Part shown: in pieces, positions 1,551 through 40,993 of the stretch
Layout: every line of letters begins with the position of its first letter
Numbering within the stretch: position 1 is the stretch's first letter
Source of the DNA: Naegleria gruberi
Lineage: Eukaryota
Reading direction: 5' to 3' (one strand)
Assembly: GCA_000004985.1 (NCBI GenBank)
Contig: GG738885.1
DNA length: 64,000 nt
Position numbers and translations under genes: made by a program
Notes under the pieces: model-generated
What the model was told of the DNA's origin: nothing
The model's input: the letters and a program-made list of their open reading frames with translations, nothing else
Databases searched by the model: none

Positions 1551-4070
1551 TTATGGTCTTTTTGTAAAAGTTGCAAAATCTCTTTCCAATAGACAGAATC
1601 GAATGGGAGAAAGTGAAAGTCCTCTCAATTTCTCAATATTTAAACCCATTGCCTCTGGGTTGAATTCATCAAATTTCAATAAACTATTCATATTTGTCAT
1701 TTCATGAATCATTTCGTCAGATAATTTTGAAACATGTCTTACATTACTCGAGTTGACCTTTTCAAACAAATTTTCCAGCAAGGTTGTTTTTAAATTAATT
1801 AAATATCCAAAAGGAACACAAATTGACACTGTAAAAAGCATCTTGACAATATCCTTTGCCGATAACTCATTAAAAAATCGAGAATCAAATCGATCATTAT
1901 TAATGGTTGCATTAATTATAAATTGAACGTGTGAAATGTCGAAATGAACTGTCATCTTATCGAGTAAATTCAAGAAGTGAATCGTCATTGGACAGAATCT
2001 ATTCAGTAATGGCTTGAATATGTATAAATCTCCTGATTTAGTTTGAATTCGTGTAGATCTTGGTTCTATCAATACATTCGATTTTGAAAGCATTGACTGA
2101 TTATCAACCTTGTTCACATTTGAATTATTATAGAAAATTGTAAAACTCTCTCCACATGCAACCGAGTTAAAATCCAACTCTCCAACTTTCTCCTTTGGAA
2201 ATTTAACTCTTTTCAGATAATTCTGATACTCGTTATCTTGTATTCCATTAATGAATCCCAATCTTCCATCTTCATTCTTTCCACATGCAAAGAATTGATC
2301 CAGATAATTTACAAACACTGAGTGGTGATAACCACAAGTCAGGTTTTTAAAACTATTCTTTGAACTTTCGCCATCTCCAAAAGTAATAAACTTGAAAGTT
2401 GGATTTGTCACATGAGTCTTGAATGAGGATAAGGAACCAACAGAGTAAATATCAGTCCTAGATCTAGGACTGTCATTATGTGAATCTGCAGAGAATGGTC
2501 GAGGAGAACACAAATCCTGAAATAAATTTGAAGGAGAATAATTTGGATTCGAATGAAAAATGTAAATTTTCTTGGAAGAGTTTGAAATAGCCAATGTAAA
2601 ATAAATTCCACTACTCAATTGGTCCACTTTCTCATTAAGAGGAACTTTCTTAAAGAATGGAATGATTGAATTCTTTCTATACATGGTTGACCTCTTTTCT
2701 TCAGGCATTGTTGATACATCCACAACTGATGCAGCATCATTCATATCACCACCAATTCCACAACTGAAAATTTCACCATCCATTGATAAAATTGCAGCTG
2801 TGTCTATATTAAAAGAAATTGATTTGATTGGAATGTTGAAGAGTGGAATTTGTGTAAAGACTGAAATTTTAGTCTTGTGAAGAAAAAGTCCCAATTGAGC
2901 ATTTGCATTCGATCCACATACGAAAACTTCTCTTTTTGAAGTGATTATTGCAGAATTATTGAACTGACAATGAATATCATCAATATGTTGATCCTTATTC
3001 AGGTAAAAATTGACTTTTGAAAAGACAAATCGATCACTAAAATCACCCAATCCCAATTGACCATCATTATTCCTTCCCGTTGAATAAACATCCCCATTCT
3101 GAGTCACAATCATTGTGTGCTTATCTCCACATGAAACCAACTTGACATTGTACAAATTTTTCAAATTCAAATTTCTAGAAATTGTCCTCGAAGGTCTCCT
3201 CATTGGTAACATGGGTTTTCCAATACTCTCAACGAGTGGTAAGAGGTTAGTGAGATGGACCTCTCTCAGGAAATTCAATTCCAAATCTTCGTGTGGTTCC
3301 AATTCGGATTGTATATGAGAAAGTGTGGAAGGAGAAGACGAAACTCTTGGTGAGTGAATAGGTGTAATGTCTGGAACATCAGAGTCACTTCCAATCGAAT
3401 CATTACTCGAATTTAAATCGGAATTTTGACCCCTTCTATGAGTTATTGTTTTAGGAATTCCCAATTGACCGAAATCATTCCATCCAGAACAGAATAATCT
3501 TCCACCATGTGTTAAAATCATGTAATGTTTGGATCCACATGAAATTTTCTTAATTTTCTCTCCAAATGGAATTGTTTTATAATAATTCAATCGATCCCTT
3601 AATGAAATTGTCGGCAATAACGTTGCTGACTTTCCCATATAATTATCCGAATGTTGTTTTGATTTTTGCTGTTGTTGAATAAATTCCAATCTCTTTTGCT
3701 GTTCTCGAGATGTGTTGTAAATTGAGCCACACAACAGGAGTCCGTCAAATTTTCCTCTTGACGAATCTTCATAACATGTTTGATTTGCAGCTTCACTATT
3801 AGACGATTCGAAACTTTGATTTAGAGTTTGGTTTAGGTTAGTTTCCTTGTTGTTGATTTCAACACGGAGTAGTGGTGGTGTATTATCGGCATCTAGAGAA
3901 GATGCTTGACTTGTTGCTGATGAATAGGAAGAAGCATCTTCTTCATCTCCTTTCCCACAATCATTATTCGAATGAACGTTTAGAAAATTATTCGAATTCA
4001 TTAAATACCCATCATCACTATATTCCAAAACACTACTGATCGAAAGAGAAGGAACTCTTTTCTTATCCAT
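1551..4070 (-). CDS. RCC1-repeat (regulator of chromosome condensation-like) protein, N-terminal S-rich low complexity region
   Basis: 839-aa ORF with ATG at 4068-4070. Several RCC1 blades are seen directly: SCGSKHYMILTHGGRLFCSGWNDFGQLG and KLVSCGDKHTMIVTQNGDVYSTGRNNDGQLGLGDFSDR. The C-terminal 150 aa looks BTB-like. This is probably the same gene as 793..1548 (see finding). Confidence 0.8.
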   Translation of the reverse strand: MDKKRVPSLSISSVLEYSDDGYLMNSNNFLNVHSNNDCGKGDEEDASSYSSATSQASSLDADNTPPLLRVEINNKETNLNQTLNQSFESSNSEAANQTCYEDSSRGKFDGLLLCGSIYNTSREQQKRLEFIQQQQKSKQHSDNYMGKSATLLPTISLRDRLNYYKTIPFGEKIKKISCGSKHYMILTHGGRLFCSGWNDFGQLGIPKTITHRRGQNSDLNSSNDSIGSDSDVPDITPIHSPRVSSSPSTLSHIQSELEPHEDLELNFLREVHLTNLLPLVESIGKPMLPMRRPSRTISRNLNLKNLYNVKLVSCGDKHTMIVTQNGDVYSTGRNNDGQLGLGDFSDRFVFSKVNFYLNKDQHIDDIHCQFNNSAIITSKREVFVCGSNANAQLGLFLHKTKISVFTQIPLFNIPIKSISFNIDTAAILSMDGEIFSCGIGGDMNDAASVVDVSTMPEEKRSTMYRKNSIIPFFKKVPLNEKVDQLSSGIYFTLAISNSSKKIYIFHSNPNYSPSNLFQDLCSPRPFSADSHNDSPRSRTDIYSVGSLSSFKTHVTNPTFKFITFGDGESSKNSFKNLTCGYHHSVFVNYLDQFFACGKNEDGRLGFINGIQDNEYQNYLKRVKFPKEKVGELDFNSVACGESFTIFYNNSNVNKVDNQSMLSKSNVLIEPRSTRIQTKSGDLYIFKPLLNRFCPMTIHFLNLLDKMTVHFDISHVQFIINATINNDRFDSRFFNELSAKDIVKMLFTVSICVPFGYLINLKTTLLENLFEKVNSSNVRHVSKLSDEMIHEMTNMNSLLKFDEFNPEAMGLNIEKLRGLSLSPIRFCLLERDFATFTKRP

Positions 4071-4723: not shown

Positions 4724-6562
4724 ATGCAAAGAAGGTTCCAACATCAAACTCTCAAGAATTTATTCTCCGTGCTTCATCAACAACAAGATCAAATCCTGTT
4801 GAGAAAATTCTCATATTCTTCTTCAGTTTCCAATTCAGCTGAAACTAAAGTTCAACAAGACGAAACAGCAAAATGTCCTTACCACCAACAAAAACAAGAG
4901 AAAATTCTCACCTTTGATGATCTCCCTGGTCCTAAAGGTTTACCACTCGTTGGAAGTCTCTTTGATTTGATGAGAGCTTCGAATGGAATTCAAAATTATT
5001 TTTCACAACTTGTTGGTGATTATGGTAAAACTGTCAAGATCAAATTGTTGAATAAGAGAATGATCATTACACAGGATCCTGATTTGGCTAATGAAATTGC
5101 AAAACAGGATGAAGGAAGAGAAACTCTTGAACCAGGTAAGTTTTCTTCACATTGAGTTGATAATTTTAATTTGAATAGCAAGAAAATTCAAGGTTGAAAG
5201 AGGATTGCCTCAGAATCCAGTCGAATCTTACAATTATGAAGATTGGTATGATATGAGACAATTGTATAATATTGCAATGCGTAAGTTGACTATTTATTGA
5301 GATTGCCAAAATTTATATGGATAGGTCCTGAATTTGTTCAAAATGTTATCATTCCACAATTAACTGAACTCAATAGTGAATTTTTACAATATCTCACCAA
5401 AAATTTGGCCTATGACAAGGAGAAGGATCATTTCGAATTACAAAATGGAACAAGAGTTGTCAATAGATATACTTTCAATTCTGTTGTAAAGGTTTTCATG
5501 GGTGCCAAGATGACCGATGAAGCTGCCTCAAAGCTCTCTTACTCAATTGATGAATTTGTTAATTTGGTTGTTGTGTTTTTGGATAACATTTTGAAACTCC
5601 AAAATGGATCTCAACTTTACAAATTATTTAAAACCAAGGAATATCGTGATATGGAAAATGGATATGAATTGGGATTGAATAGATCAAAGGAATGTATTGA
5701 CATGTTTGATAAGGGTGAATATGCTGGAAAACCAAGAATGAAAGAACTCATTGAAGAAAGAGCTTCAAAATTCCAAGATAACAAGGATAAGCAACTCTAT
5801 GTAAATGTTGTGTTGAGCTCCTTCTTGATGGCTGGTGTTGATATCACTGCTCGTACCATAGTAGGTGAGTATTCTTTGTATTGAGAATTTTTCAATAATT
5901 CAATTTTAATGTGTTTGTTGTTTTGTGGAATAGTCTTAATGTATAGATTGGCCACTGAGAAGGAATTCCAAGAGAAACTCTACCAAGAAACTGTTGAAGT
6001 ATTTGGAGAACCAACATTGGATGAATTGACTTCAGAAAATGGTCTCACAATCACTCCAGAAACTTTGAAGAAACTCAAGTTATGCAGAGCCTTTGCAGAT
6101 GAAAGTTTGAGATTGAATCACATCATTAAATCGACAAGCACCAGACAATTGAGTAAGGATATTGTTGCTAGTGGAATTAAGATTGAACAGGGCACAACTG
6201 TCATGTTCTTGGAAGATCCTGCCAGGTATCAACAATGGGTTAAAAAGAGTACTGAATTCATTCCTGAAAGACATGAAAGAGGTTCTGACCTTGCCGTTCC
6301 AAAGACATTCTCTGGACCTTTCGGTAAAGGAGCTAGAAAATGTCCTGGTGAAAGAGTTGCCTTTACTGAAATTTACTTTGCCTTGATTAATCTTGCAAGA
6401 CATTTCAGATTATCTCACTCTAATGGAAACACTCTTCCTCCACTCAATGAAACCACAACTTTGGGGTATTTGGATATGAATAAGTATCATTTGTATTTCA
6501 AACCAAGAGAGCATTTGGCTGAATACTTTGAACAATTAAAGAAGACCCAAGCAAAACATTAA
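4724..6562 (+). CDS. cytochrome P450 (mitochondrial-presequence-like N-terminus), 4 exons
   Basis: Exons are 4724..5135, 5179..5280, 5325..5864 and 5934..6562. All junctions are phase-consistent GTAAGT/GTGAGT...AG. Exon 2 carries the C-helix WxxxR motif (EDWYDMRQ). Exon 4 carries ExxR (ADESLRL) and the heme-Cys loop FGKGARKCPGERVAFTEI. Confidence 0.9.
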
Positions 6563-7148
6563 TTTGCATGTGGGATTTTGTACTAGAAAGTCAAATAAAC
6601 AATGTTATTATTGAACACCCATGAGGACTAGTAAAACGACAAAGATGATATTCCATATATGCCATTGATGTTAATTTTTTTGTAATCTCCTTCGTTCATC
6701 TGGTTGTGATTCTAATCAAGAATGTTTACAATACCAAACAATGATTTAGAAATGAATCCATTTAAAGACCTACCCTCTATCTATTCAGAATTGAAAACTC
6801 CTCAGTAATAATGTATTTCATACTCTCCCAATAATACACCCTCAATTATATTCTTCATAAAATCCTATTAAACTTCCTCTCCTCAATATTCCATTATCAT
6901 CATCACTACAACCTTCTCTCCCTATTACATAACACCTCCAGAAGAACATTCCTCCAATAATAACAGCACGTTTATCAACTTCTTACTTTGAGGCTTATTT
7001 AAAATTGTTTGTGCTTTAGAGAAATTTTTTAAAGTTTGAAAAAAATCAGCGAAGAGCTTTTGATAGGTCGGCACCTCATCGTTAGCACAACAACAACAAA
7101 ATAATATTGATTATTGCTGCATCAATAGAATCATCAGATATATAGAAT

Positions 7149-8326
7149 ATGAGTCGTCCAATTAATGTGGATCCGATAGCGTCTGGATCATACGGAGCCA
7201 TTGAATCGAGTAAAAAGTTTGATAAACCAAAGGATGCTGGTAAAACAGAATTATTTATTGATGAGAGGGATTTTAGGAAGGACGATGATTTGGAGGAAAA
7301 TTATAGAATTGTTGATGAAGGGAAGAAAAAATCGGCAGCACGAAAGCTTTGTTTGAGTATTGTGAAGGCTTTTGTTATCTTGTTGCTTTTTGCAGTTTTT
7401 GTTGGTATTGTCGTTTTGATTGTTGAATTGGTTGAATTGTTCCACACAAGTCAGGTGAGTTTTTCATTGTCACACCATATATCAATGATGGAATTAATGT
7501 GCTTGTACAATTATTATTATTATTATTGAATATTATTATAATTATTTGAAAATTATTGAATCACACATGATGAAAATATCTATTGGAATGTTCGGAATAA
7601 TGATAACAGGTTGCTGATTTGAATATTCACTTTAAATTGAGTGCTGAATGTGAAGCATCTGCAATGGATATCAATAATATTATTACTGGTTTGGATAAGA
7701 ATCAACAAATTAACTTTAATGTTACCCAACAACCACACGTTACTTTATACTTGACAAGATTCCTCAGTGAATTTACTGACACTATTATTTCAAGTGTCAA
7801 TCAAACATTACTTGCTGAAAGTAAACTTTACAATCTGACTGATTGTACTGCCACTACCAATACATTTGTCAATGTAACTGGTTCCTATGCATTATGGAAC
7901 ATGCCAATTCCAGCTTGTTTACAAAGAATGAGTGATATCATTGTAAATGCCACTTCTCAATTTGTAGATCCTAGAGTTAAGAACACTATTCCATCATGGG
8001 TCAATAATTTACCAAATGCTCTCAAGGAAGTTAAAATCAAAATGATTCACTTTTATGGATCTCCAAATGTTTATTCTCAATTCCAACCTCAGTAAGTTTT
8101 TCAAATATATATTTCAATTTTGAATCTCATACATTTATACAGTGTGACAGTTGCTCACGACGACGTCAATCCAAAGGAATTAGAACATGCCTTTGCCACC
8201 TTAGGACCTGTCCAATCATGCTCCTTCAAGATTAAGACCATTGCTATTGGCCAAACTGGCGATTATGGTACTGTTTTGAGAGGAAAGGACATTGCCTCTT
8301 TTGATCTTTCTCAATATTCCAATTAA
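7149..8326 (+). CDS. 2H phosphoesterase-superfamily protein (LigT/cyclic phosphodiesterase-like) with N-terminal signal-anchor TM, 3 exons
   Basis: Exons are 7149..7454, 7610..8091 and 8143..8326 (donors GTGAGT at 7455 and GTAAGT at 8092). A hydrophobic anchor LLLFAVFVGIVVLIVELV is present. The first H-x-T-x motif is QQPHVTLYL. The second, FQPHVTVAH, is formed only across the exon 2/3 junction (ca|t gtg aca). Confidence 0.55.
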
Positions 8327-8697
8327 TTAATCTATGTTAATATATTAAACATTTCAAATTATTATTTTGTAACATTTATTGTAAAACATTCACAAAATCA
8401 TCACATAATGCTACAAGTTGTTAACAATCTATTTTTAAAAAAAAATAAAAAGTTTGGCGCTCTCTTTGTGTCCTTCATCACCAAGATCAAACTTTTTCGG
8501 GATCACAGAGAACAAATCCTTTGATTGCGATTTTACAGCAATCATTTGATAACTAACAACACATCTTATTACCTATATTGATAATATTAAACATATATAA
8601 TAGACGAGAAATATTGTAATTTAATAACAAACATTACCTCAAGAAACGCTAGAGAGAATTTATCACATCCTAATCACACTGATTTAATTGTAAAATT

Positions 8698-10194
8698 ATG
8701 CTTCCATCATCATCAAATAATAATATATTCACTACTCCCCAATTACCTTCTGCATCCTCATCAACACCAAGTGGAAATAATGGCATGATACCGTCCTTTC
8801 AAAGTAATAATAATAATAATACTAGTAGTAGTAGTGTGGATTCACAACAACAACAACATCAATATTCATCACACCTCCAACCCACCTTTTCAAATCATCC
8901 TCCCTATCATTCTATTCATTCAACAGCTAGTAATGGACCTGGACTCTCCCATCATCATCACCATCATGGACATCATCAAGCCTCTCTCCAACCTCCAATC
9001 CCGATCATGAATGGAAATCAAAAGATTCCCAATGCAAATAATAGATTTGTTTTTCCAACACATCCATCCATGTTAATGATGAGTAATCCTTCACAACATC
9101 CCTATATGCCTCCACATCATGGTGGTGTAATGCCATCCTCCTCCACAGCTCAACAACCTCCTTCTCAATACTCTCAAGAAGTAGTATCAAATTCTAGGAC
9201 AATACCCCCAAATGTTAATAATATTCCAATGAATACTACCGTAAAATATAGTAATAGTACAATAATGAATAACAAGTATTCGACAACTATAGCTGATAAC
9301 TCAATCCCAACAACAACACCACAAGAATCCTACATATCAACAACAGTTCCATCAACAGCTTTACCTGTTTGGCAAAATTTAGTGTCTGAAATGGTCAACC
9401 CAACATCTAAAAAACCAAAGAATGAACTCCCACTCGCCAGAATTAAAAAGATTATGAAATCAGATGAAGAAGTAAGAACTAAAACAATGATTAGTGCAGA
9501 GGCACCAGTATTATTTGCCAAAGCATGTGAAATGTTTATTATTGAACTCACACTTCATGCATGGGTTCACACAGAGGAATCAAAAAGAAGAACACTCCAG
9601 AGAAATGATATTGCTGCAGCAATTGGAAAGACAGACATCTTTGACTTTTTGATAGATATTGTTCCGAGAGAGAATGAAAAACCAGCAACCAACTCTAATA
9701 GTCATCAACAATCTTCACACAGTCATCATCAACATGCCTCCAACAGTGGTGGAGGTGGAAAAGGAGTTTCTGCTACTGCTTCCTATCATCACAATCAACA
9801 AACATCACTTCCACAACAACAACAATTAATTGATCCACAAGAAGAAGAACACAATACTGTCGAAGAGGAAATTGATGATGAGGATGGTTTTCAAATTGAT
9901 GATGAAGATGACACTCATTCCGATGATGAATTCGAGCCACCTCAACAAGATATTACTCCAACAAAGAATGAAGATGTCTCCAAGCTGCTTTTGCCATCCC
10001 TAGATCCAAAGAATATGAGCGGAGAAAACTCTATCAAATTTGTACCAGGTCTTGGTGTTATTGGTTCTTCACAGAAACAAGCGAATATCGAACGAGAGAC
10101 AAGTGCTATACTTGTAGATGCTCCCGAGCTGACATCAGAGCCTAGCCAATTCTTAGATGATTCCCAGACATTCCTTCCACTCGATAATCAATAA
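8698..10194 (+). CDS. NFYC: CCAAT-binding factor subunit C (NF-YC/HAP5) histone-fold protein with long Q/N/S/H-rich flanks
   Basis: The histone-fold core [82 protein letters not shown] matches the NF-YC family signature almost residue for residue. An ATG is at 8698. There is a poly-His run and an acidic C-terminus. Confidence 0.9.
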
Positions 10195-10710: not shown

Positions 10711-11470
10711 GGTGATATTGTTGATTTTTTTTCGAACAAGAAAAATGAATTTTGGTTGATATGAATTTTACAATGAAAACTCACTAGCTAGGCAAACAAT
10801 AAAAAATTTGTTATCTTACCATCTACTCCTTGTTGTGCTGTTGTGATAACCTTCCAAGAAACTAATTTTGATAAGAAGGAATTGGTAAATTAATAGGAAA
10901 GTACTAAGAGGAATATCTTGGATATCTTCTAAATTATTGTTGAACATACTTGCATAGATTGAATTATAGTATTGCAATGTTTCAATCTAATCATGGAAGA
11001 GGAGAAGCCTCTCCAAGTCTATTCACTCACATCAGGGATTGGCTCTTCTCGCATAATGAACACAATTTGGATCTGTGTGGTGGCTTGGAAACTATTCGTC
11101 AATGTTTATCTCGATCGAAGGCTTTCCAATTTTCGTAGGTTTTTCTCTTCTTTGATCATCTTGATATTTATTGTCTGTGATGGAATTAAACAATTAATAA
11201 TAACGGATTAATTAACTATGGAATGATATGGAATAATTTAATGCCAATGATGAGAATAGGAATAATCTTCGTTATCAAATCTATAAAACAATTACTCAAG
11301 TGGAGGGGAAATCTTTCTATCAACAATTCATCAAACATTGTCCAAACTTGAAATTAACAATTGAGCAACATGAATCAACCGATGAAGAAGGAGAACAAGA
11401 TAACCTCTCTGTTAATTTGAACTATTCAACTCTATTTAATTGTTATTTAAACGTAAAACACTTGTCCAAG

Positions 11471-13576
11471 ATGGACCCAATGATATCTGGTGTGCTTGAT
11501 ATTCTCCAACAGAATCATCATCAAACAGAACCATTTAATGATTCCAATCATCCGATTCATCTTTACATGTTCCTTACAAGGAATGTCATTGAATATTTGG
11601 GAGAATGTTTAATTAATTTCATGGATCTGTACTTTGAATTCATTATTCAATTATTCATTTGTGGAAATGTTAGTAGGGGGGAATTATTGGCCAATCAACT
11701 ACTAGAGGACATGGAACAAATTTCCGAAGAGAGCTTCATCTTGTTGGAAAACATGTTGAATGAAATTTACATATTTGGTATCGATTTTCAGGATGAATTT
11801 ATAACAAGCAAGCAAAAACTGTCCAAATTAATCAATTTAATATTTGGAGTGATTTATTTCAATAAGGGTAACGAGACCAAATACCTGCAATATATGGAAC
11901 GTGTATATTCTGACGAAATAATCGAAAGGAAAATACTGAGAGTGATCTTCTTGAATAGAATAGGAGATTTTGAGAAGGCCTATGAAGTAGTGAAAGGCCT
12001 GATTCATTTCCATGATTTTTACAAATACCTTGATGAATATTGCAAGACCATGATAGGACTGAATAGAACCGAAGAGCTCTTCCAAGACCTAGAACCGATA
12101 GTGAGTGTCAAGATTCAAGAAAGTGATGCTAGAACTTTTGTACAGGAGAATTTTGGAGTAATTTATTGCCTCTACCTTTCTGCCAGCTTATCAGGTAGGC
12201 TTAATGAATTGGAGCATTTGAACAAATATAATGTAGAATATGCAGCTTGCTTTAGTAACAAGCTTAAAATTCTCAAATGCTACGCGAAATTCCAAATAAG
12301 CATGTCATATGGATTTTTAGAGCAAATGAATCGATCCTCATTCGTTCTACTTAATAGTTATTGCTTGTCAATGTTTGATTCCAACAATCAGTTCATGCAG
12401 CAAAGTAAGGAACATACAAAAGTTATTCATGGAGATCAATTGAAACTTTTCGTTAACATGTACTCTACAACAAGTTTCCGATTCCAAGTTGATTTTGATT
12501 TTTCCAAATTGATTTCTAATGAAGCAATTCTAACTGAATTCAAATATTCCTACAATCCAAAAAATCTTTCTCTGCTCTATGACCCAGAGAACAGTCCAGA
12601 GAGGGAAATATATAGCGATAATACCACCAAAGTATTTGCCAATCTTGATAGTGTTTATATTTGTAAACCTGATGATTGTTGGGCAAAAGAAATGCCTACT
12701 GAATATGGATCACAAATCATCTGCTACAAGAACCATTTACTACTCAAGAAGGACTTTTCCATAAAGTCAGTATCATTCAATAATGGAAAGGAAAAGAAGC
12801 TTAAATTATCTAACTGTAGATCACTTGATGTGAAATATGATACAGAGAATTGGATTTCCTTTTTATTTAATAGAGAAGATGAGAATTTAATAGCTCTTGG
12901 ACAGGACTGTGGGCCGAGTATTATAGCTTCTTCCCTGCACGGTGTAGATATTGTGAGTTTTGAGGAAATTGAGGATGGCATTGCATGTTATTTAGCGATT
13001 GAAAGATTACCATCACGAACATCTAATATATGTAAATACTACATCAGTGTTGAAAATGGGCATTTACATCAAAGAAAGGTATTATTTTCAGATGATAATC
13101 ACTTCTCGATTGATTTTTATCACGAGAAGGAGAAAATTATTGGCTATTCCTGCCCTGAACATTTACAATTTTACAATGTCAACACAAATAAGTTGCTCTA
13201 TCAAACGACTGTAAAATCATTATATTTACTTGACCAATTTCAAGACATGATTCTAATTGCAAGCGATGTGGAAAAAAGATTAATGGTATTTAATCTGAGT
13301 AAGGATTCAGTTAAGGTACTTGTAGATTTATCCTACAAGAATAGCCCTTCAATTGTGCTAGGAAGATTTTGTGGATCTCGTTCGTTCATTATTGAAAGAG
13401 AAGACACCACCCTCTATGAGTACTCTTTATCCAATGGTGAATGTCTTGCTGTTTATCCCTTCAAGATTAATTTTACAACATCTGTGGAATATTTCGAGCA
13501 TTCCCCTTCACAAAAGAGATTTCTTCTCGTATTGGAACTTGATTGCATTCATCTCATTGAATTGTCATCAATTTAA
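11471..13576 (+). CDS. hypothetical protein (about 700 aa)
   Basis: The long ORF is open from 11300 (GTG). The first in-frame ATG is at 11471 (MDPMISGV...). No domain is recognised. An upstream spliced exon cannot be excluded. Confidence 0.45.
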   Translation: MDPMISGVLDILQQNHHQTEPFNDSNHPIHLYMFLTRNVIEYLGECLINFMDLYFEFIIQLFICGNVSRGELLANQLLEDMEQISEESFILLENMLNEIYIFGIDFQDEFITSKQKLSKLINLIFGVIYFNKGNETKYLQYMERVYSDEIIERKILRVIFLNRIGDFEKAYEVVKGLIHFHDFYKYLDEYCKTMIGLNRTEELFQDLEPIVSVKIQESDARTFVQENFGVIYCLYLSASLSGRLNELEHLNKYNVEYAACFSNKLKILKCYAKFQISMSYGFLEQMNRSSFVLLNSYCLSMFDSNNQFMQQSKEHTKVIHGDQLKLFVNMYSTTSFRFQVDFDFSKLISNEAILTEFKYSYNPKNLSLLYDPENSPEREIYSDNTTKVFANLDSVYICKPDDCWAKEMPTEYGSQIICYKNHLLLKKDFSIKSVSFNNGKEKKLKLSNCRSLDVKYDTENWISFLFNREDENLIALGQDCGPSIIASSLHGVDIVSFEEIEDGIACYLAIERLPSRTSNICKYYISVENGHLHQRKVLFSDDNHFSIDFYHEKEKIIGYSCPEHLQFYNVNTNKLLYQTTVKSLYLLDQFQDMILIASDVEKRLMVFNLSKDSVKVLVDLSYKNSPSIVLGRFCGSRSFIIEREDTTLYEYSLSNGECLAVYPFKINFTTSVEYFEHSPSQKRFLLVLELDCIHLIELSSI

Positions 13577-14371: not shown

Positions 14372-16624
14372 ATGACCTTTCTAACACCAACTGTTGATAA
14401 CAGTACCACATCTACTCGAAAGAATAGTACACTTCTGACCCCTCCTCCAACTGGAACCAAATCACCTTCTTCCACAACACATTCAGCCACCAATCCAACA
14501 AACCAAGACGAAACTCGATCAGCAGTCTCTAAAGCAGGAGGAAATTCTTCTATTGAAAATGGCAACATTAAGAAGGAATTATACATGAAGAGAAAGAGAA
14601 TCACATTACTGAGCAGTATCTTGGGTTTAATATTTGCAGTATTAGCTGTTGCTGTTCTGTCACCAATCATTGTCATTGTCATTCACTCATTGGAAAAACA
14701 GAGAAAAGATGGATATGTAGAGAGAGTGAAACAGATTGCAATTACTGCAGAGCTGCTAATCAGAAAACAAGTTGAAGTTTCGTTTGGTTCTCTACAAATT
14801 ATGAGTCAAGTCGCCCAAGAATGGAATTATTCGATTAATTTGGAAAGATTTAACAATTTTGCTTCAAGGTTGACCAAAGATTTTCCAGAATTGAATACTT
14901 TTGAGTATGCTCTGACGGATGAGTTTGTTTTGGAGTATATTTATCCATTGGCAGGATTGGAATTTATGATTGGACATCACATGGGTCTTAATACGTATGT
15001 AATTTTTACAATTTTTGTAATTTTTTAATTTTTTAAATATTTTGTAATTTATTTAATAATATTTAATAATATTTAATTTGAAATTGTAAAATATTGAATG
15101 AAATTGTATTGAAATAGACCTGCTCATACAACAATTATTAAGGAAGCAGTTGCTACGAAAAAGACAAAAATCTTTGGACCAATCAATATGATCAATTTGG
15201 ATCCTAATTCTGTGGCTGTAATTGCTCAGAATCCAATTTACTATCCGAATGGAACTTTCTTTGGTTTGAGTGTGGAACTGTTCGATTTTATGAAACTATT
15301 CGAAACTATAGATTTACACACAGTTCTATCAGGATTCCAATACCAACTATTCGAATATGCTCAAAATCAAATCTTTATGCAAAATCTCAATGGAACCAAA
15401 TCAGGAACCATTGGAACTATAGGAAATCCCAATGTGAAATATTTAACAGATTCAATCGAACGAAACATGACAGTCATGAACAGTAATTGGAAAATTATCC
15501 TTCGTCCAATTGATGGCTGGGACACTGACAGCTTACTCTGGCTTGAAGTCTGCATTGGCATTGCAGTTGCCTTAGTAGTTTTCATTCTCGTCATTTTAGG
15601 AGTCAACCAATTGGTTCAAGATTATTTCAGAAAGAAGGAATATCAATATATTCAAGATAGTTTGGAAATGAAAGTTAAGGAGAGAACGAAAGATTTGGCT
15701 AGCTCACATTCTCAATTATTGTTGCTTTTGGATAGAATTTCATTTGAGGAGCAGAGAACGAAAAAGATTATGAATTCTCTGGAAGATTCGGTTATCACGA
15801 TTGATTCGTCAGCTATGGGAAAGATTATACATTCGAATAATGCATTTTTTAAGAATTTTGGATATACTGATTCGGATTTGATTAGAAATTTGTCAATTTC
15901 AACTCTTTTACCAAAGTTAAATTTGAGTACGATTGTGACAGAGTTGAAGAATCAAGCCGATTTGAAAGTAGCCGAAACTACTGCCAATACAAAGACAGGA
16001 GTTTCGCTCAATGTGAAAGTTTCCATCTCCATGAGTCAAATTTACAATCAACCTTCCAATAATCAACAAAATTCGATTGGTCAACCAGGAATTCCAACCA
16101 TTACCATCACAGACGAAAAGGAAAGAGAAATGGCAACCATCAGAGAATGCAAACTCCAAACTGTCTACGTTATCCTAATCCACATCCTCGACACAATCAT
16201 CCATCCAACAGGTTTCAACGAACACTATCAACTCACCAACCAAATCACAAATGAATTTCTGGAATTTTTCACAGATATTGAAAATCGAAAGAAATTTAAA
16301 GAATTTTGCTCGACTGAAAGAAACGATGAAAATATTTGCTTTTTGGAAGATGTGGAATTTTACAAAAGTTTGGGGAATATTCAAGAAAGAGTTACAATGC
16401 AAGAGGAAATGTATAACAAGTATCTTAAGGCTAATTCTCCAAAACAGTTGAATATTTCAAAGAAACAATTAGAAACTCATTCGTTCAAGATTAGTCGAGG
16501 TTTGGGAGAATTTGAACTGTTTGACGAGTTGGAGAGGACTGTTATCTTGACAGTTTCAATGGATAGCTTTAAGAGATGGCAAGAGAAGGAGAGAAGAAAT
16601 GAGGATCATCTCAATTATCTGTAA
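14372..16624 (+). CDS. two-TM receptor-like protein: extracellular CHASE-like sensor domain, cytoplasmic PAS-like region and C-terminal RGS domain; 2 exons
   Basis: Exon 1 is 14372..14994 and exon 2 is 15118..16624 (donor GTATGT at 14995, acceptor AG at 15116-17, phase 2/1 consistent). TM1 is ITLLSSILGLIFAVLAVAVLSPIIVIVIH. An ectodomain of about 270 aa follows (...KIFGPINMINLDPNSVAVIAQNPIYYPNGTFFGLSVELF...). TM2 is LLWLEVCIGIAVALVVFILVILGV. The RGS signature is NEFLEFFTDIENRKKFKEFCSTERNDENICFLEDVEFYKSL. Confidence 0.65.
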
Positions 16625-16727
16625 TTTTATAAATTCTATTCGAATCCATTCGAAACTCTTTTCAAAGGTTACACATGGTACTCAGACGTTGTACGCACTG
16701 TATGAACTTTTTAAAGTTACAAAAAAA

Positions 16728-17291
16728 ATGCAACAACTTCTCCATACGTTATCCAAACACTTGCCAAGGAAACAAATCTTTCACTCATTGAACGATCAAA
16801 CAAACGTTCTAATTTTGGAAAGATTCAATTTATTATCTTTTGAAAATGGACCTGGTTTAGTGTTACATCGATTTGTGCATTCAGATCCTGATAGAGGGTA
16901 TCATGATCATCCGTGGAGGTTTGGCATTAGTTTGATATTAAGTGGTTCGTATAGGGAAATTAAAGTTTCGCATTCGAATAAAAAGATGAGTGAGAAGGAG
17001 TTTCGTGCAGGAAGTGTTAATTATTTCAGTGGGAAGGATTATCACCGAGTCTTGCTGAAACCTCAACCGAATGAGAATAAGGAAATCAAGGAATTGGATG
17101 AAAATAATGAGGAAATTGTGGACGAATGTGAGGTGTGGACTTTATTCTTTCATTGGAAACGAGTTAAAATGTGGGGATTCCTCAAAGAGGAAGAAACCTC
17201 TCCGGATGGATGGAAATTCAATCAATACAGCAAGACAGTGGAAGATATGGATGGTGCTTGGTGGAAGGATGAAATCAAAGTAAAGAATTAA
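16728..17291 (+). CDS. hypothetical small protein (possible cupin-like His cluster HSDPDRGYHDHPW)
   Basis: ORF 16599..17291 with its first in-frame ATG at 16728 (MQQLLHTLSKH...). No confident family assignment. Confidence 0.4.
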   Translation: MQQLLHTLSKHLPRKQIFHSLNDQTNVLILERFNLLSFENGPGLVLHRFVHSDPDRGYHDHPWRFGISLILSGSYREIKVSHSNKKMSEKEFRAGSVNYFSGKDYHRVLLKPQPNENKEIKELDENNEEIVDECEVWTLFFHWKRVKMWGFLKEEETSPDGWKFNQYSKTVEDMDGAWWKDEIKVKN

Positions 17292-22556: not shown

Positions 22557-23751
22557 ATGATGATGACGATGATCAACAAAATAGATTTTGTTTCATACAC
22601 TTATACTGATAAATTTGTCAGATTAGAGATTGATGGTAAATCTTCCTTTGCTTTTAGTAATATTATCGGAGGAGATAAGAGTATATTCTTTGTTTGTGCA
22701 TCTTCTAATAGACTGGTCGAGATCAATGCTAAAGAATTTATTAGGCATAAAACACACAATACAGTAAAAACACCTATTACTTTGATTGATCACGATAAAG
22801 ATAATAGAATAGAAATGACAAAGATTGAATACCCAAATTTGATGGAGGACTCTATTGTTTATAATATTCAATATGTTATGGGAAAGGATTATGTGTATTT
22901 AGTGGACAAAAAAGATGGGAATGTTGGATCTTTTTCTCTCACTACAGGTCAATTATTAGTTAACAATTATTCAGATCATAGAGGAATCAGAAAGTTTATC
23001 GCTGGACCTCTTTCTTCTTGTCATGTCGTGCTGACCTATGACGGAACTATTTTTGAGAATGGAAAGGAGGTTGTTTTTTTTTCTACTGATCCACAACCGA
23101 ATATTTTGAGAGCTGCATGTTGTGGAAGAGGATCAATTCTGGCTTCTTCTCATGATCTTTATGCAAGAGGAGGCGATAATGTATTCTTTGTGTTTTCAGA
23201 AAAGTTTGGAGACTACAATCAAAATGTTTCATCAACACAGTTTGTGCATATTGCTAAATTTGAACACGAAATTAGAGATATCCAATGTGGATACTTTCAT
23301 ACTGTGGTTCTTTTGCAGAATAATGAATTATTTGCATGTGGCTACAATTGTTTGAATCAAGCCACTTGGGATAATTCCAGTGGTGAGATTAAACAATTTA
23401 CCAAAATTCAATACTCATTCGGTTATATTGAGAGATTTGGATGTTCCTCAAGAGGTACTTGGGTTGTTAGTGGTGAGTATTTTGTTCTTCTTTTGCTAAT
23501 CTTTTTAAGGTGATGAGGTTACAATGGTAGGAGAGGTTGTTGAACATTTTACAACTTTAGTTTCAAATACAGTTGTTCCAAAAATCATAAAGTTTCATCT
23601 GGAGGGCTTTGCTTGTGATACATTGACGAATTGTGGATGGCACTACGTAATGTACAAGCAAAACTCAAAGAAGAGTAACTATTTCAAAGAAAGACTTCAT
23701 ACCATGGTTGACTCGGAACGAATTTCTGACCTTGATTTCATTTACCAATAA
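22557..23751 (+). CDS. RCC1-like repeat protein, 2 exons
   Basis: Exon 1 is 22557..23472 and exon 2 is 23510..23751 (donor GTGAGT at 23473, acceptor AG at 23508-09, phase-consistent). RCC1-like blades are IQCGYFHTVVLLQNNELFACGYNCLNQ and AACCGRGSILASSHDLYARGGDN. Confidence 0.5.
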
Positions 23752-23912
23752 TTTATGTAAAATCATATTTTTAACTTAATGCCTGTGTAACCATTAATAT
23801 GGTCATTATCCTTCCTTTTGTTACATCCACTAACTCTACCATCCTAAACTGGAATCCATGTCACAGTTAAATCTGATTTGACTTGCAATACCACCGCTCT
23901 TCAACAAAAAAA

Positions 23913-25202
23913 ATGCCAAAACAACAAACAACCAAGAAAACCACAACCAATATCACTGAATCAAAGCAAGCCAAGACAAATATCTTGTTAGCACAGAATG
24001 AATTCTCTTCTGCCCTTTTCTCCCAAGTTGTCGATGAGAGTGCAGTAGATTCCAATGTAATTATTTCTCCATTTTCTATTTACCTGGCCATGATTAATTG
24101 CATGATGGCAACTGGAGGAAATACATTGAAGGAAATGATAAACGGTTTATTCCTTAAGGATAGTTTCGACAGTTGTAAGATGAACGATTTCAATGAACAG
24201 TTCCAACAATGGAAGGAAAGTGAATTGAAGCAGTACTCTACAATGATCAAGAAGATTGTTCAAAATCAGGATGTTTTATCAATTGCAAACAGAATTTATG
24301 TTGAAAAGTCTGTCGATATTAAGAGCGAATTTATTCAAGAATTAGAAGATCAATTTGATTCTGAAACTCAGTTGGCTAATTTCAAGAATGGTACCAAATC
24401 AGAAGTTTCAAAAATTAACAATTGGGTTGCTTCCATCACAAAGAATTCCATTAGAAATTTGATTACTGAACTTGACAAGGAAACACTCATGGTTCTTGTA
24501 AATGCCATCTACTTTAATGGTAAATGGAAGCATCAATTTCTTAAGAATAGAACTGTGGAAACTGCATTCAGAACTGTCAAAGATCCAGAGGGTGACTCAA
24601 CCAATTGCCAAATGATGAGTTTGGAAGATTGTAAAAGTAATTTTTATTTTGAAGAAATAGAAGATTGTCACATTTTAAAATTACCATACACAGACGAAGA
24701 TTATTGTATGCTCATTATCAAACCAGATGATTCCATTGATGTAGACGAGGAAAATGAAATTAGCTTCAACAAATGGATCAATTCAAAATTAACTGATATT
24801 ACCCAAATCTATCCTAAAGAAATGGTAAAGATGAGAAAGATTAGAATTCCTAAATTCAAATTTGAAAAGCAATTCGCCAACATTATTTCCAAAATGTCAG
24901 GCAACCCATTCAATATCAAGTCCTTATTCAATTCTAACACAGCTGATTTTTCCAACATGCTCTCTAATCCAAACACTGATGGAATCTATGTAGATCAAAT
25001 AATTCACAAGGCATGCATTGAAGTGGACGAATGTGGAACTGTTGCAAGTGCAGCAACTGCCATCTCAGCCAGAAAAAAGAGTAAATCTAGCTCTTCTGAA
25101 AAGGTATACGAATTTATTGCAGATAGACCTTTTGCATTCGTATTGAACCACATTCCTACCCAAAGTGTTCTCTTTGTTGGTAAAATTAATCAAATAAATT
25201 AA
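23913..25202 (+). CDS. serpin (serine protease inhibitor)
   Basis: Serpin hallmarks are VVNAIYFNGKWK, a hinge-like EVDECGTVASAATAIS, and the C-terminal FAFVLNHIPTQSVLFVGKINQ. The ORF is open from 23883 (TTG); the first ATG is at 23913. Confidence 0.85.
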   Translation: MPKQQTTKKTTTNITESKQAKTNILLAQNEFSSALFSQVVDESAVDSNVIISPFSIYLAMINCMMATGGNTLKEMINGLFLKDSFDSCKMNDFNEQFQQWKESELKQYSTMIKKIVQNQDVLSIANRIYVEKSVDIKSEFIQELEDQFDSETQLANFKNGTKSEVSKINNWVASITKNSIRNLITELDKETLMVLVNAIYFNGKWKHQFLKNRTVETAFRTVKDPEGDSTNCQMMSLEDCKSNFYFEEIEDCHILKLPYTDEDYCMLIIKPDDSIDVDEENEISFNKWINSKLTDITQIYPKEMVKMRKIRIPKFKFEKQFANIISKMSGNPFNIKSLFNSNTADFSNMLSNPNTDGIYVDQIIHKACIEVDECGTVASAATAISARKKSKSSSSEKVYEFIADRPFAFVLNHIPTQSVLFVGKINQIN

Positions 25203-37966: not shown

Positions 37967-40900
37967 TCAATAAAAAGCACAGACAAGAGCAACCAACATC
38001 AAGATCAAACATTGTAAACCACTTCTTGAATTGAGTGAGTGAGCTGATGATACAGCACGTGCATTGTCACTCGATACAATAAAATTGGAAATTACAAAAC
38101 CTTCAGCTTGATCCAATTCATCTTGTAATGATCTTTTTGAAACTGAAGCCAAACCAATATTTGTCTGAACGAAACAAGATCTTGCTTGTGCACTTGATGA
38201 TGGGAAGAGAGAAGGTTCAAGGGCAAATGAAAAGGTGGAAACATAATTAGAACTTGATGGATAAATAATTGTGGAAACTTTGGAATTGGCAATATTATTG
38301 GAAATTATTGAATGTTGGACATCCATTGAGGAAGAATTGAATTTGGAGCATCCAAATTGACCAAGTGATGGATTATAAATCAATGAGAATATTGTCTCTT
38401 TGAAACAGCAGAAATAGGCATCAGTGACAGCTAGACGTGAGCTAGAACTTGTAAAGGTTGATGATTGTACATTGGAAAACACTCTGTCACCTGTTTTGAA
38501 GGTTGTTTTTGGAGACCAATCATTTCCTGCCAAGTACATTGATCCCTGTATTGTGATATTCTTTTCAGTTGGTGGGGTAACAATGGTATATTCGATTTGG
38601 ATTGGGAAATATATAGTTGTAATGTCTGTAACACCCTTTCTAGTGAATGTTCCAGTGAAATAGGTAAGAGCTCTATAATCATTGGATGTAGTAAGGGATT
38701 CGAATTGAATTTGATAGAAATTCGAATCACCATTTTGGAATAAAAAAGTAGATTCAGTAACTTGCATGGAATAAGCAGCTGTAGTATTGAAGAAAGTAAA
38801 CGAATTCAATGTCAAATTAGTTGCTTTCAATACAACTGAAATAGAGAGCTTTCCACTAGATGTAGTTGTTACCTCTTGTGGATAAACATTAGTTGCATAG
38901 CCATAGATTGGATTATACTGAGAGAATGATCCAATTACTGTTCCAGATTGAATGTAAACTAATTGATAAGTTTTGAATTCGTATGATCTACAGAATCCAC
39001 CATTTTGAGAACCATCTCTATCAAGGTAATTCATGGAAATAGGAAGCTTAAGAACCAACATATTTGAAGAGTATTGCTTAATCACGAGAGGATTTGAGAT
39101 TAAATCATCAATTGTGAATTCTGGAGTTGAGTAAATGGCTTGACATTTAGATTTACCAATCAAATTCAAGGCGATACTTTGATTTCCATTCACTGAACAA
39201 TTCTTGAACTTGGATTCACCAACAAAGAATAAATGTTCGTAAGGAACAGCATCAAGTTTGTACGAAACTGTAAATGAAATGGCCTTTCCAACAATGCTCG
39301 ATGAAATAATTGGACTTGGAGCACCAAATGCTTGAACATTAGTCCACAAACATTCAGAACCTACTACTGGAATACTACAATTCAATCCAGTAAATCCAGC
39401 ATTGCATGTACAATTATTACTTCCAGAGCAGTAACCTCTTCCCAAAGCAAAGGAGCAATTATTCAATGAAACATCATCACATGAGAAGGAGGAGCAATTG
39501 GTTGCTGATTTCCATCCAGAGCTGCAGTTACACTTGTTTGGAGCAAAACAATCACCATGTCCAGAGCAAACTGTTTGATTTGTACTGATCTTACCATCAC
39601 AAATAGGGAGATTACAATTGACACCACCATATCCAGTACTGCACACACAAGTGTATGGAGCTACACAAGATCCATGTCCAGAGCAAACTGTTGGATCTGT
39701 ACTGAGTTTACCATTACAAACTGGGATATTACATTGAACACCTGCATAACCGTTCAAACACCAACATGCACCAGGAGCAATACAAGCTCCATGTCCAGAA
39801 CAAACAGCACTTGCATTATTACTGAGCTTTCCATAACAAATAGGAAGACTACAATTGATACCACCATATCCAGTACTGCACACACAAGTGTATGGAGCGA
39901 CACAAGATCCATGTCCAGAGCAAACTGTTGGATCTGTACTGAGTTTACCATCGCAAACAGGCAGATTACATTCAGAACCTGCATAACCATTCTGGCAATA
40001 ACATGAATCTGGAGCCAGACAAATACCCCTTCCAGAACAAACACTTGCATTATTACTGAGTTTACCATAACAAATTGGAGTTTCACATTTAGAACCAGCA
40101 TATCCAGCATTACATGAACAAGTATCTGCTGCAACACATTGTCCATTTCCATTACAAACACTTGAATCATTTTGGAATTTACCATAACAGGAAGCTATTT
40201 CACATGAAGAACCATGGTAACCTGGTTTGCATGTGCAAATATTATTGGAAAGACAAGCACCTCTGGATGGTCCACCACAAGCATTACTCCCACTTTGACC
40301 AAAACAGGTAAAAGCAGAAGCACATTCACTTCCATAATATCCATCCTGACATTGACACTTATTATACGAAACACATGTACCCTTCGAACTGCATGCAGCA
40401 CTTCCAACCTTCAAGTAGCACATTGGCTTATCACAATTAGCACCACCATACATTACTGCACTTTCGGCCAATGGGAATACCAATTGTTGCCAACAAATTT
40501 TCCCCACTGAATCATAAACCATAAAATTTCTATCTGGTCTAACCACCAATCTGAAAGGACTAACACCTCCACTGCAACCAGAAGAGAATGTAAGATAATT
40601 CGAATTTCCATTATTTAGATTAAATGCTCCATTACTATTATCCAATTTAATGTAATAATTCGAATAACCTGGATAGTAACCTTGTGCCCAATCTGCATAT
40701 CCAGCACGTTGATACAGAACGAAATTACCATCATTTTGAAGAATAAGATATTCATCATTTTGTGGGTTGTAAATTTGTACTAATTTTGGGATGGATCCAT
40801 TGATGGAGGAGTGCATGTAATTTCCAGACGAAAGGTCAAGACATTCGCAGGTATCTTGAGCTTTGCAGAGACCGTTTCCACCACATACTTGCATGTCTGT

Positions 40901-40993
40901 TGGAAGCTTACCGAAACATGTGTGGGCGTGAGATTGGTGGATCAAGCAAAGCAAGAGTAGGACGAATGAGATTCGAACAACTATTTGCATCAT
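37967..40993 (-). CDS. secreted/membrane-anchored EGF-like (tenascin/laminin-type) repeat protein, about 1008 aa
   Basis: The signal peptide is MMQIVVRISFVLLLLCLIHQSHAH. About 12 Cys-rich repeats of the form CxCxxGYxGxxCxxPxCxGKLSxxxxVCSGHGxC are present. A hydrophobic C-terminus (GLQCLILMLVALVCAFY) indicates a TM or GPI signal. Confidence 0.8.
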   Translation of the reverse strand: MMQIVVRISFVLLLLCLIHQSHAHTCFGKLPTDMQVCGGNGLCKAQDTCECLDLSSGNYMHSSINGSIPKLVQIYNPQNDEYLILQNDGNFVLYQRAGYADWAQGYYPGYSNYYIKLDNSNGAFNLNNGNSNYLTFSSGCSGGVSPFRLVVRPDRNFMVYDSVGKICWQQLVFPLAESAVMYGGANCDKPMCYLKVGSAACSSKGTCVSYNKCQCQDGYYGSECASAFTCFGQSGSNACGGPSRGACLSNNICTCKPGYHGSSCEIASCYGKFQNDSSVCNGNGQCVAADTCSCNAGYAGSKCETPICYGKLSNNASVCSGRGICLAPDSCYCQNGYAGSECNLPVCDGKLSTDPTVCSGHGSCVAPYTCVCSTGYGGINCSLPICYGKLSNNASAVCSGHGACIAPGACWCLNGYAGVQCNIPVCNGKLSTDPTVCSGHGSCVAPYTCVCSTGYGGVNCNLPICDGKISTNQTVCSGHGDCFAPNKCNCSSGWKSATNCSSFSCDDVSLNNCSFALGRGYCSGSNNCTCNAGFTGLNCSIPVVGSECLWTNVQAFGAPSPIISSSIVGKAISFTVSYKLDAVPYEHLFFVGESKFKNCSVNGNQSIALNLIGKSKCQAIYSTPEFTIDDLISNPLVIKQYSSNMLVLKLPISMNYLDRDGSQNGGFCRSYEFKTYQLVYIQSGTVIGSFSQYNPIYGYATNVYPQEVTTTSSGKLSISVVLKATNLTLNSFTFFNTTAAYSMQVTESTFLFQNGDSNFYQIQFESLTTSNDYRALTYFTGTFTRKGVTDITTIYFPIQIEYTIVTPPTEKNITIQGSMYLAGNDWSPKTTFKTGDRVFSNVQSSTFTSSSSRLAVTDAYFCCFKETIFSLIYNPSLGQFGCSKFNSSSMDVQHSIISNNIANSKVSTIIYPSSSNYVSTFSFALEPSLFPSSSAQARSCFVQTNIGLASVSKRSLQDELDQAEGFVISNFIVSSDNARAVSSAHSLNSRSGLQCLILMLVALVCAFY
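39510..39990 (-). repeat. near-perfect internal tandem duplication (2-EGF unit, about 234 nt) inside the EGF-repeat gene
   Basis: PVCDGKLSTDPTVCSGHGSCVAPYTCVCSTGYGGINCSLPICYGKLSNNASAVCSGHGACIAPGACWCLNGYAGVQCNI is followed by PVCNGKLSTDPTVCSGHGSCVAPYTCVCSTGYGGVNCNLPICDGK. Confidence 0.75.

Follow-up and report, generated by a model that had tools for sequence, protein, structure and literature searches.

A two-transmembrane CHASE-PAS-RGS protein of Naegleria gruberi, predicted to be a ligand-regulated GTPase-activating receptor

Introduction

How an extracellular cue reaches a self-activating Gα subunit has yet to be explained for plants and many protists. Only the seven-transmembrane (7TM) RGS proteins have been studied as an input to such subunits, and their sensing mechanism is unclear (PMC9283941). 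The gene described here lies on the + strand of a 64,000-nucleotide (nt) stretch of Naegleria gruberi DNA (assembly GCA_000004985.1, contig GG738885.1), referred to throughout as the window, which is ~33% G+C and has a eukaryotic gene layout. Its product is predicted to run from a cytoplasmic N-terminus through a first transmembrane helix (TM1), an extracellular (or lumenal) CHASE sensor domain and a second transmembrane helix (TM2) to a signalling helix (S-helix) with an ERT signature, a PAS domain and a C-terminal canonical RGS box. An earlier reading of the same DNA, made without database searches and called the original prediction below, had proposed a receptor of this general kind.

Gene model and splicing

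In the window, two open reading frames (ORFs) are listed on the + strand at the locus, 14372..15028 and 15188..16624, either side of an AT-rich stretch. An AT-rich intron of 123 nt with GT..AG ends (5′ GTATGT, 3′ ATAG) occupies 14995..15117, as had been proposed; its excision keeps the frame and joins 14372..14994 to 15118..16624 in a coding sequence of 2130 nt, or 709 codons plus stop. The product size first given for this splice, 684 amino acids (aa), was a miscount. An exact-sequence look-up shows the spliced product to be identical to an annotated ‘predicted protein’ of N. gruberi NEG-M (XP_002674207.1 / EFC41463.1 / UniProt D2VNS3; gene NAEGRDRAFT_70600, on a scaffold of 362 kb), so the same intron was chosen by an independent annotation. 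The N. lovaniensis orthologue (P0002), with 63% identity to the window protein, also has a single intron, which splits the conserved ‘GLNT/PAH’ motif (the slash marks the junction) at the same Thr codon and in the same phase 2, and which measures 266 nt as against 123 nt. The intron falls in the middle of the CHASE domain, and the domain aligns unbroken over the junction both with orthologues that span the intron and with bacterial CHASE domains, which have none.

Judged by its sequence, the locus is one two-exon N. gruberi gene, as originally held. It is highly improbable that the two ORFs are separate genes or transcripts and that the CHASE-RGS fusion protein does not exist, an artefact to which the calling of the exon-2 ORF alone as a 478-aa protein (P0001) by a metagenome gene caller might point: the canonical, frame-preserving intron, the agreement with the public annotation, the continuity of the CHASE alignment, the conserved intron position and phase, and full-length relatives of the same architecture in four species all argue for a single gene. 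The exon-2 ORF was found on just one other contig, a stretch of genomic DNA from an ENA metagenome (ERZ929261, run ERR1078381; L001). Its positions 1-1822 correspond to window 15093..16916 at 99.2% identity, indicating a near-identical Naegleria strain in that sample.

Membrane topology

A Kyte-Doolittle hydropathy plot with a 19-residue window shows exactly two strong hydrophobic segments, at aa ~78-104 and ~347-372. TM1 is preceded (KKELYMKRKR), and TM2 followed, by sequence rich in K and R, and four N-glycosylation sequons (N152, N252, N299 and N324) lie between the two segments. Together these features predict an N-in, loop-out, C-in topology, in which aa 105-346 would form an extracytoplasmic ectodomain between two TM helices. 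The arrangement of TM, ectodomain, TM and PAS-like domain that had been put forward is therefore kept as regards the two TM segments, and the ectodomain is shortened from ~270 to ~240 aa. AlphaFold models, made for the N. lovaniensis orthologue and for the database copy of the window protein (P0156), are of moderate confidence (pLDDT, the per-residue confidence, 66-71; pTM, the whole-model score, 0.37-0.39) and do not allow an interpretation of how the domains are oriented to one another.

The ectodomain as a CHASE sensor

In the Pfam scan the window protein itself has no match to CHASE (PF03924, cut-off 25 bits) at E<=1, and the N. lovaniensis orthologue scores 24.0 bits. Five full-length members of the family pass the cut-off (P0004, 29.9; P0008, 27.6; P0010, 34.9; P0011, 28.0; P0012, 38.7 bits). 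A profile of the whole family was run by exhaustive HMMER against 1.84 billion representatives and the matches were classified with local hidden Markov models (HMMs). Besides relatives, the search recovered a large set of ectodomain-only matches; 47 of the 53 that were scanned are positive for Pfam CHASE (best E 8.9e-31). These proteins have the layout TM, CHASE, TM and RT.EL helix, followed in about half by PAS, and their outputs are HisKA/HATPase, receiver, GGDEF, EAL or SpoIIE; the single one that is named belongs to a candidate division NC10 bacterium. In two of the set, the histidine kinases P0037 and P0077, the CHASE domain occurs twice in tandem, with TM segments on either side of each copy and about four TM segments in total.

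An HMM was built from 43 of those 53 ectodomains, all belonging to bacterial sensors. The ectodomain of the window protein reaches 98.5 bits against it over aa 101-352 and covers 238 of 242 profile positions (4-241), although the test is not fully independent because the family-profile search had itself supplied the bacterial sequences. The motifs common to the window and bacterial ectodomains include YPL.G.E..IG, GP..L, P(I/V)(F/Y), (F/W)G(F/L) and P..GW. The Asp of the bacterial consensus ‘GHDLL.DP’ is replaced by His in the window protein, at a position that varies within the Naegleria clade, so the ligand specificity probably differs from that of the bacterial relatives.

Comparison with known structures is less direct. 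The ectodomain profile matches sequences in the PDB weakly (AHK4, E 0.078; PcrK, E 0.49), with an alignment to 3t4j of only ~45 residues (E 0.078), and the profile of the whole protein retrieves from the PDB sequences RGS and GRK chains and a weak FixL PAS (E 0.027) only, and no CHASE structure. In the structure model the ectodomain is predicted to consist of a long stalk helix and a pair of PAS-like lobes, which is the fold of AHK4 and PcrK. It is concluded that the ectodomain is a divergent CHASE domain. The CHASE-like sensor of the original prediction is retained in this qualified form, carried by the relatives above the cut-off and by the bacterial HMM and not by a Pfam match of the window protein itself.

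The signalling helix and the PAS domain

TM2 is modelled as one unbroken helix with the segment that follows it, from aa 347 to 428. Within it, aa 373-420 form the most conserved region of the family, with 63.5% mean pairwise identity, compared with 52.5% for RGS, 45.4% for CHASE, 37.8% for PAS and 22% for the N-terminal tail; the linker between PAS and RGS is poorly conserved. This helix holds K-E396-R397-T398-K, in which R397 and T398 are invariant in the family alignment, and bacterial CHASE kinases carry the same RT.EL helix after TM2 in their consensus. An ERT signature is the defining mark of the S-helix, through which sensor and output are coupled in receptor cyclases and histidine kinases (PMC1592074). 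On sequence and model, the segment qualifies as such an S-helix, being a helix of ~40 residues that joins a TM segment to the domain after it and has ERT at its centre, and it is probably a dimeric coiled coil. If selection acts on signal transmission, the S-helix would be expected to be the most conserved part. For the predicted PAS domain that follows, the matches of the window protein fall below the Pfam cut-offs for both PAS_9 (18.7 vs 27) and PAS (16.9 vs 22.6).

The RGS domain

The C-terminal RGS domain of the original prediction is confirmed: the motif it quoted is present, and aa 594-697 match Pfam RGS (PF00615) with 44.2 bits against a cut-off of 23.9 (E 3e-11). Six of seven family members have the match. 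The structure model shows the all-helical RGS-box fold, and its RGS domain matches the fold of RGS4 from the complex with Gαi1. Sequence searches of the PDB (phmmer and profile) return RGS18, RGS4, RGS1, RGS10 and RGS6, of the R4/RZ/R7 types, and the best matches in sequence and fold taken together are the R4/RZ-type RGS4, RGS1, RGS18, RGS3 and RGS8, which are active as GTPase-activating proteins (GAPs). The interface of RGS4 with Gαi1 comprises E87, N88, N128, D163, S164 and R167. In an alignment with rat RGS4, the window protein is identical at all six positions, N653 being the counterpart of N128, and the equivalents are kept in most family members.

The retained counterparts of Asn128, Asn88 and D163/S164/R167, and the GAP activity of the closest sequence and fold matches, make it distinctly unlikely that this RGS box is a docking or effector module that lacks GAP activity. 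Such a module would bind Gα-GTP or another partner, in the manner of the RGS-homology domains of GRKs, axin and sorting nexins, and the protein would then be a scaffold or a sensor-bearing Gα effector. The possibility draws on RGS domains that have lost GAP activity and serve as scaffolds (PMC3971589), on the RGS-homology domains of GRK2, SNX13/25 and axin that figure among the structural and sequence matches, and on two relatives, P0008 and P0019, from which the RGS4-type GAP residues are absent. A GAP-active RGS domain is the preferred prediction for the window protein.

The two exceptional relatives (P0008, from a metagenome, 729 aa; P0019, 685 aa) keep the CHASE ectodomain and the two-TM layout, and P0008 falls below the Pfam cut-off for RGS. 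They are possibly pseudo-GAP or decoy receptors.

The features of the gene and its product are collected in Table 1.

Table 1. Features of the CHASE-PAS-RGS gene, in window coordinates
Feature	Position	Strand	Basis
Exon 1: aa 1-207 and first 2 bases of codon 208	14372..14994	+	ORF listing; splice reconstruction; identical to XP_002674207.1
Intron: 123 nt, phase 2, within the Thr208 codon	14995..15117	+	same position and phase in N. lovaniensis
Exon 2: last base of codon 208 to stop (16622-16624)	15118..16624	+	splice reconstruction; annotation match
N-terminal cytoplasmic tail, aa 1-74: S/T/P/N-rich, predicted disordered, K/R-rich end	14372..14593	+	pLDDT ~30 over aa 1-62; 22% mean pairwise identity
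TM1, aa ~78-104 (predicted)	14603..14683	+	hydropathy peak 3.19; helical in both models
Predicted extracytoplasmic CHASE domain, aa ~105-346: intron-split; long stalk helix and two PAS-like lobes; 4 sequons	14684..15532	+	
TM2, aa ~347-372 (predicted)	15533..15610	+	hydropathy peak 3.30; modelled continuous helix aa 347-428
Juxtamembrane S-helix, aa ~373-420: ERT at aa 396-398 (nt 15680-15688)	15611..15754	+	63.5% identity; invariant R397/T398
Predicted PAS domain in the cytoplasm, aa ~421-565: includes an insert (aa ~519-552) of low confidence and weak conservation	15755..16189	+	
RGS domain, aa ~585-700: N653 (nt 16451-16453), equivalent of RGS4 Asn128	16247..16594	+	

Family and distribution

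The survey of related genomes that the original prediction had proposed finds the same architecture in N. lovaniensis, N. fowleri (P0007) and Willaertia magna, alongside a second N. gruberi copy (XP_002679599.1) and full-length metagenomic relatives. All named members of the family come from Naegleria or Willaertia. The metagenomic members lie on gene-dense eukaryotic contigs, next to genes for F-box, RCC1, longin/synaptobrevin and CTLH proteins, and a homologue search with the strongest metagenomic CHASE-RGS protein (P0026) returned this protein alone.

The PAS-RGS half of the protein also matches many proteins with a different N-terminal half. Among 44 further two-TM proteins, every one of which has an RGS domain, the ectodomain is CHASE in 16 (best E 8.7e-27), CHASE4 in 14, half of them (7) with HAMP, and NIT in four. 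The presence of CHASE, CHASE4 and NIT ectodomains on RGS proteins indicates that sensor modules have been wired to RGS repeatedly, mostly with PAS between. By sequence, the gene belongs to a lineage-specific heterolobosean expansion of receptors that combine a bacterial-type sensor, TM segments, PAS (in most) and RGS. Such an expansion fits the 229 RGS proteins reported for N. gruberi (PMC3971589) and the 28 7TM-RGS and 79 other RGS proteins of N. fowleri (PMC9283941). The sensor module is of bacterial type and may be bacterial in origin.

Several members stand out individually. NIT or CHASE4+HAMP ectodomains are joined to the PAS-RGS half in P0014, P0015, P0016 and P0020 (Willaertia magna and relatives), P0025 and P0071; the pairing of the nitrate/nitrite-sensing NIT domain with an RGS output is odd in itself. 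Five proteins from Logan and metagenome data (P0017, P0018, P0021, P0022 and P0029) have the CHASE domain and two-TM layout of the family, and RGS is absent; P0017 and P0018 keep the S-helix and carry no output domain recognisable by Pfam. These five may be truncated models or bear an unrecognised output. On a 14-kb eukaryotic metagenome contig (L004), two genes with both CHASE and RGS lie ~3 kb apart, at 1843-3639 (-) and 6838-8892 (+), which suggests local duplication.

Proposed function and mechanism

With the gene model, the identities and order of the domains, the predicted two-TM topology and the retained Gα-contact and GAP residues in place, sequence and structure model point, with a probability of roughly 65%, to a ligand-regulated GTPase-activating receptor for Gα, through which an outside signal would act directly on G-protein deactivation with no classical seven-helix receptor in between. 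The proposed mechanism has three steps: (i) the CHASE domain would bind a small ligand, (ii) the stalk helix and TM2 would shift, and the S-helix and the PAS dimer would relay this shift, (iii) the access of the RGS domain to membrane-bound Gα-GTP, or its GAP activity on it, would be altered. That the protein sits in the plasma membrane, binds a ligand, dimerises and acts as a GAP, and in which direction it is regulated, are all points that we infer.

The G proteins of the genus suit such a receptor. N. fowleri has 13 Gα subunits, some of which are self-activating, and the RGS domains of its 7TM-RGS proteins speed up the GTPase of its Gα subunits (PMC9283941). For subunits that exchange nucleotide spontaneously, as some in Naegleria do, the GAP step is where regulation must act (PMC9283941), and an outside signal would enter at a regulated GAP step and not at a regulated exchange step.

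A second way to regulate such a protein would be through trafficking, with a constitutive GAP anchored in the membrane and without an allosteric relay through the S-helix and PAS. This is unlikely, given that the most conserved part of the family is the ERT S-helix, a device specific to allosteric coupling of sensor and output, and that a plain anchor would need no conserved S-helix and PAS. It does have a precedent, for AtRGS1 is regulated by ligand-induced endocytosis. AtRGS1 is the only well-studied receptor-RGS and is cited for its GAP role in glucose responses, which it modulates partly via GAP activity on a self-activating Gα (PMC9283941). Within the window protein, the weakly conserved PAS-RGS linker and the 70-aa S/T-rich disordered cytoplasmic tail, which could be a region for phosphorylation or trafficking, are also consistent with regulation by trafficking.

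Several points count against a ligand-regulated GTPase-activating receptor and temper the probability given above. The sensor assignment has to contend with the missing Pfam CHASE match of the window protein, the recruitment of the bacterial ectodomains behind the 98.5-bit test by the family profile itself, and the weak matches to AHK4 and PcrK. Topology is drawn from hydropathy and the positive-inside rule, and the ectodomain could face the lumen of an organelle. The PAS matches lie below their cut-offs, the AlphaFold models are of moderate confidence, some RGS domains elsewhere are not GAPs, and P0008 and P0019 have lost the RGS4-type residues. With 229 RGS proteins in N. gruberi, single paralogues may be redundant or decaying.

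A ligand-regulated GAP of this kind is open to experiment. The CHASE sensor makes ligand control of GAP activity directly testable, because CHASE domains are soluble and crystallisable, their ligand classes are known elsewhere, and mutations that lock S-helices are known. The class could also matter for sensing by a pathogen, as N. fowleri has a member (P0007). A broader proposal is tentative and rather less probable than the receptor itself: heterolobosean amoebae may hold a layer of two-TM ‘receptor-GAPs’, in which CHASE, CHASE4-HAMP and NIT sensors, acting through S-helix and PAS, would drive RGS so that small ligands gate G-protein deactivation allosterically, in parallel to G-protein-coupled receptors and 7TM-RGS proteins. 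If so, the gene in the window would be the founding, experimentally tractable example.

Neighbouring genes

An operon-like context was considered and rejected, as the neighbours are unrelated eukaryotic genes. Directly upstream lies an ORF of 758 aa (window 11300-13576, +) that matches no Pfam family at E<=0.001. Downstream, a 230-aa ORF with an ‘HDHPWRFG’ motif (16599-17291, +) also has no Pfam match at E<=0.001; by the mechanical call it begins 26 nt short of the CHASE-RGS stop codon, and its true start is probably a later ATG. A histone-fold NF-Y/CBF-like gene is found near the CHASE-RGS gene in both N. gruberi (window 8698-10194, +) and N. lovaniensis (L002 6035-8182, -); its position on different sides and strands in the two species suggests loose synteny with rearrangement. 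The match of the ORF at 5909-6562 (+) covers no more than the C-terminal third of the cytochrome P450 profile (positions 286-449 of 462), and the ORF presumably represents a single exon of a P450 gene that has several. Further away, and all unrelated to CHASE-RGS, are a 1008-aa teneurin-like EGF-repeat protein, an NHL-repeat protein kinase that runs past the window end, two RCC1-repeat proteins and a serpin, at 37967-40993 (-), 60965-64000 (-), 1551-4070 (-), 22557-23513 (+) and 23883-25202 (+).

Comparison with known systems

The protein is already public as an uncharacterised entry, and TM-anchored RGS proteins as such are known. The statement in the original prediction that RGS domains are normally soluble or fused to 7TM proteins understated their range, as most eukaryotic lineages are reported to have RGS proteins anchored by TM segments (PMC3971589); N. 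gruberi alone has 229 RGS proteins. No description of CHASE, CHASE4 or NIT sensors coupled to RGS was found in the searchable literature, a scope outside which the likeliest catalogue, Anantharaman et al. 2011, falls.

The nearest functional counterparts are the 7TM-RGS proteins, namely AtRGS1 and the 28 of N. fowleri (PMC9283941). Like them, the window protein is predicted to be integral to the membrane, with a canonical RGS box at its cytoplasmic C-terminus, and presumably brings an extracellular cue to Gα deactivation in an organism with self-activating Gα. Unlike them, it has two TM segments and not seven, and does not belong to that family; its sensor is a globular CHASE domain of ~240 aa in place of a 7TM bundle or an EGF/lectin N-terminus, and S-helix and PAS stand between the membrane and RGS.

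Closer in layout are the paralogues with NIT-TM-PAS-RGS and CHASE4-HAMP-PAS-RGS architecture (Willaertia KAL9643125.1/P0014; N. lovaniensis XP_044549017.1/P0071), which share its two-TM topology and whose PAS-RGS half is homologous. Among them, P0014-P0016, the NIT proteins of Willaertia, have the S-helix in common with the window family and match its profile with E ~1e-80. The paralogues differ in the family of their ectodomain, and some add HAMP.

With receptor guanylyl cyclases and other S-helix receptors (PMC1592074), the protein has in common an extracellular ligand domain and a TM segment from which an ERT helix leads to a cytoplasmic output. In contrast with those receptors, its S-helix leads to PAS and then to RGS, an output that the text of that paper leaves unmentioned.

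The sensor half of the protein belongs to the CHASE receptor class. The same exchange of output sets the protein apart from the CHASE-domain sensor histidine kinases, such as the Arabidopsis cytokinin receptor AHK4/CRE1, Xanthomonas PcrK and Dictyostelium DhkA, and from the bacterial CHASE-PAS kinases and GGDEF-EAL proteins. HisKA/HATPase_c, receiver, cyclase and GGDEF/EAL domains are absent from the Pfam scans of the window protein and six full-length relatives, and RGS stands as the output instead. In its overall build the protein resembles a sensor histidine kinase of the bacterial CHASE-PAS type, with a eukaryotic RGS box standing where the kinase core would be, and the rewiring of a bacterial-type two-component sensor front end to a purely eukaryotic output makes it a clear case of modular signalling evolution.

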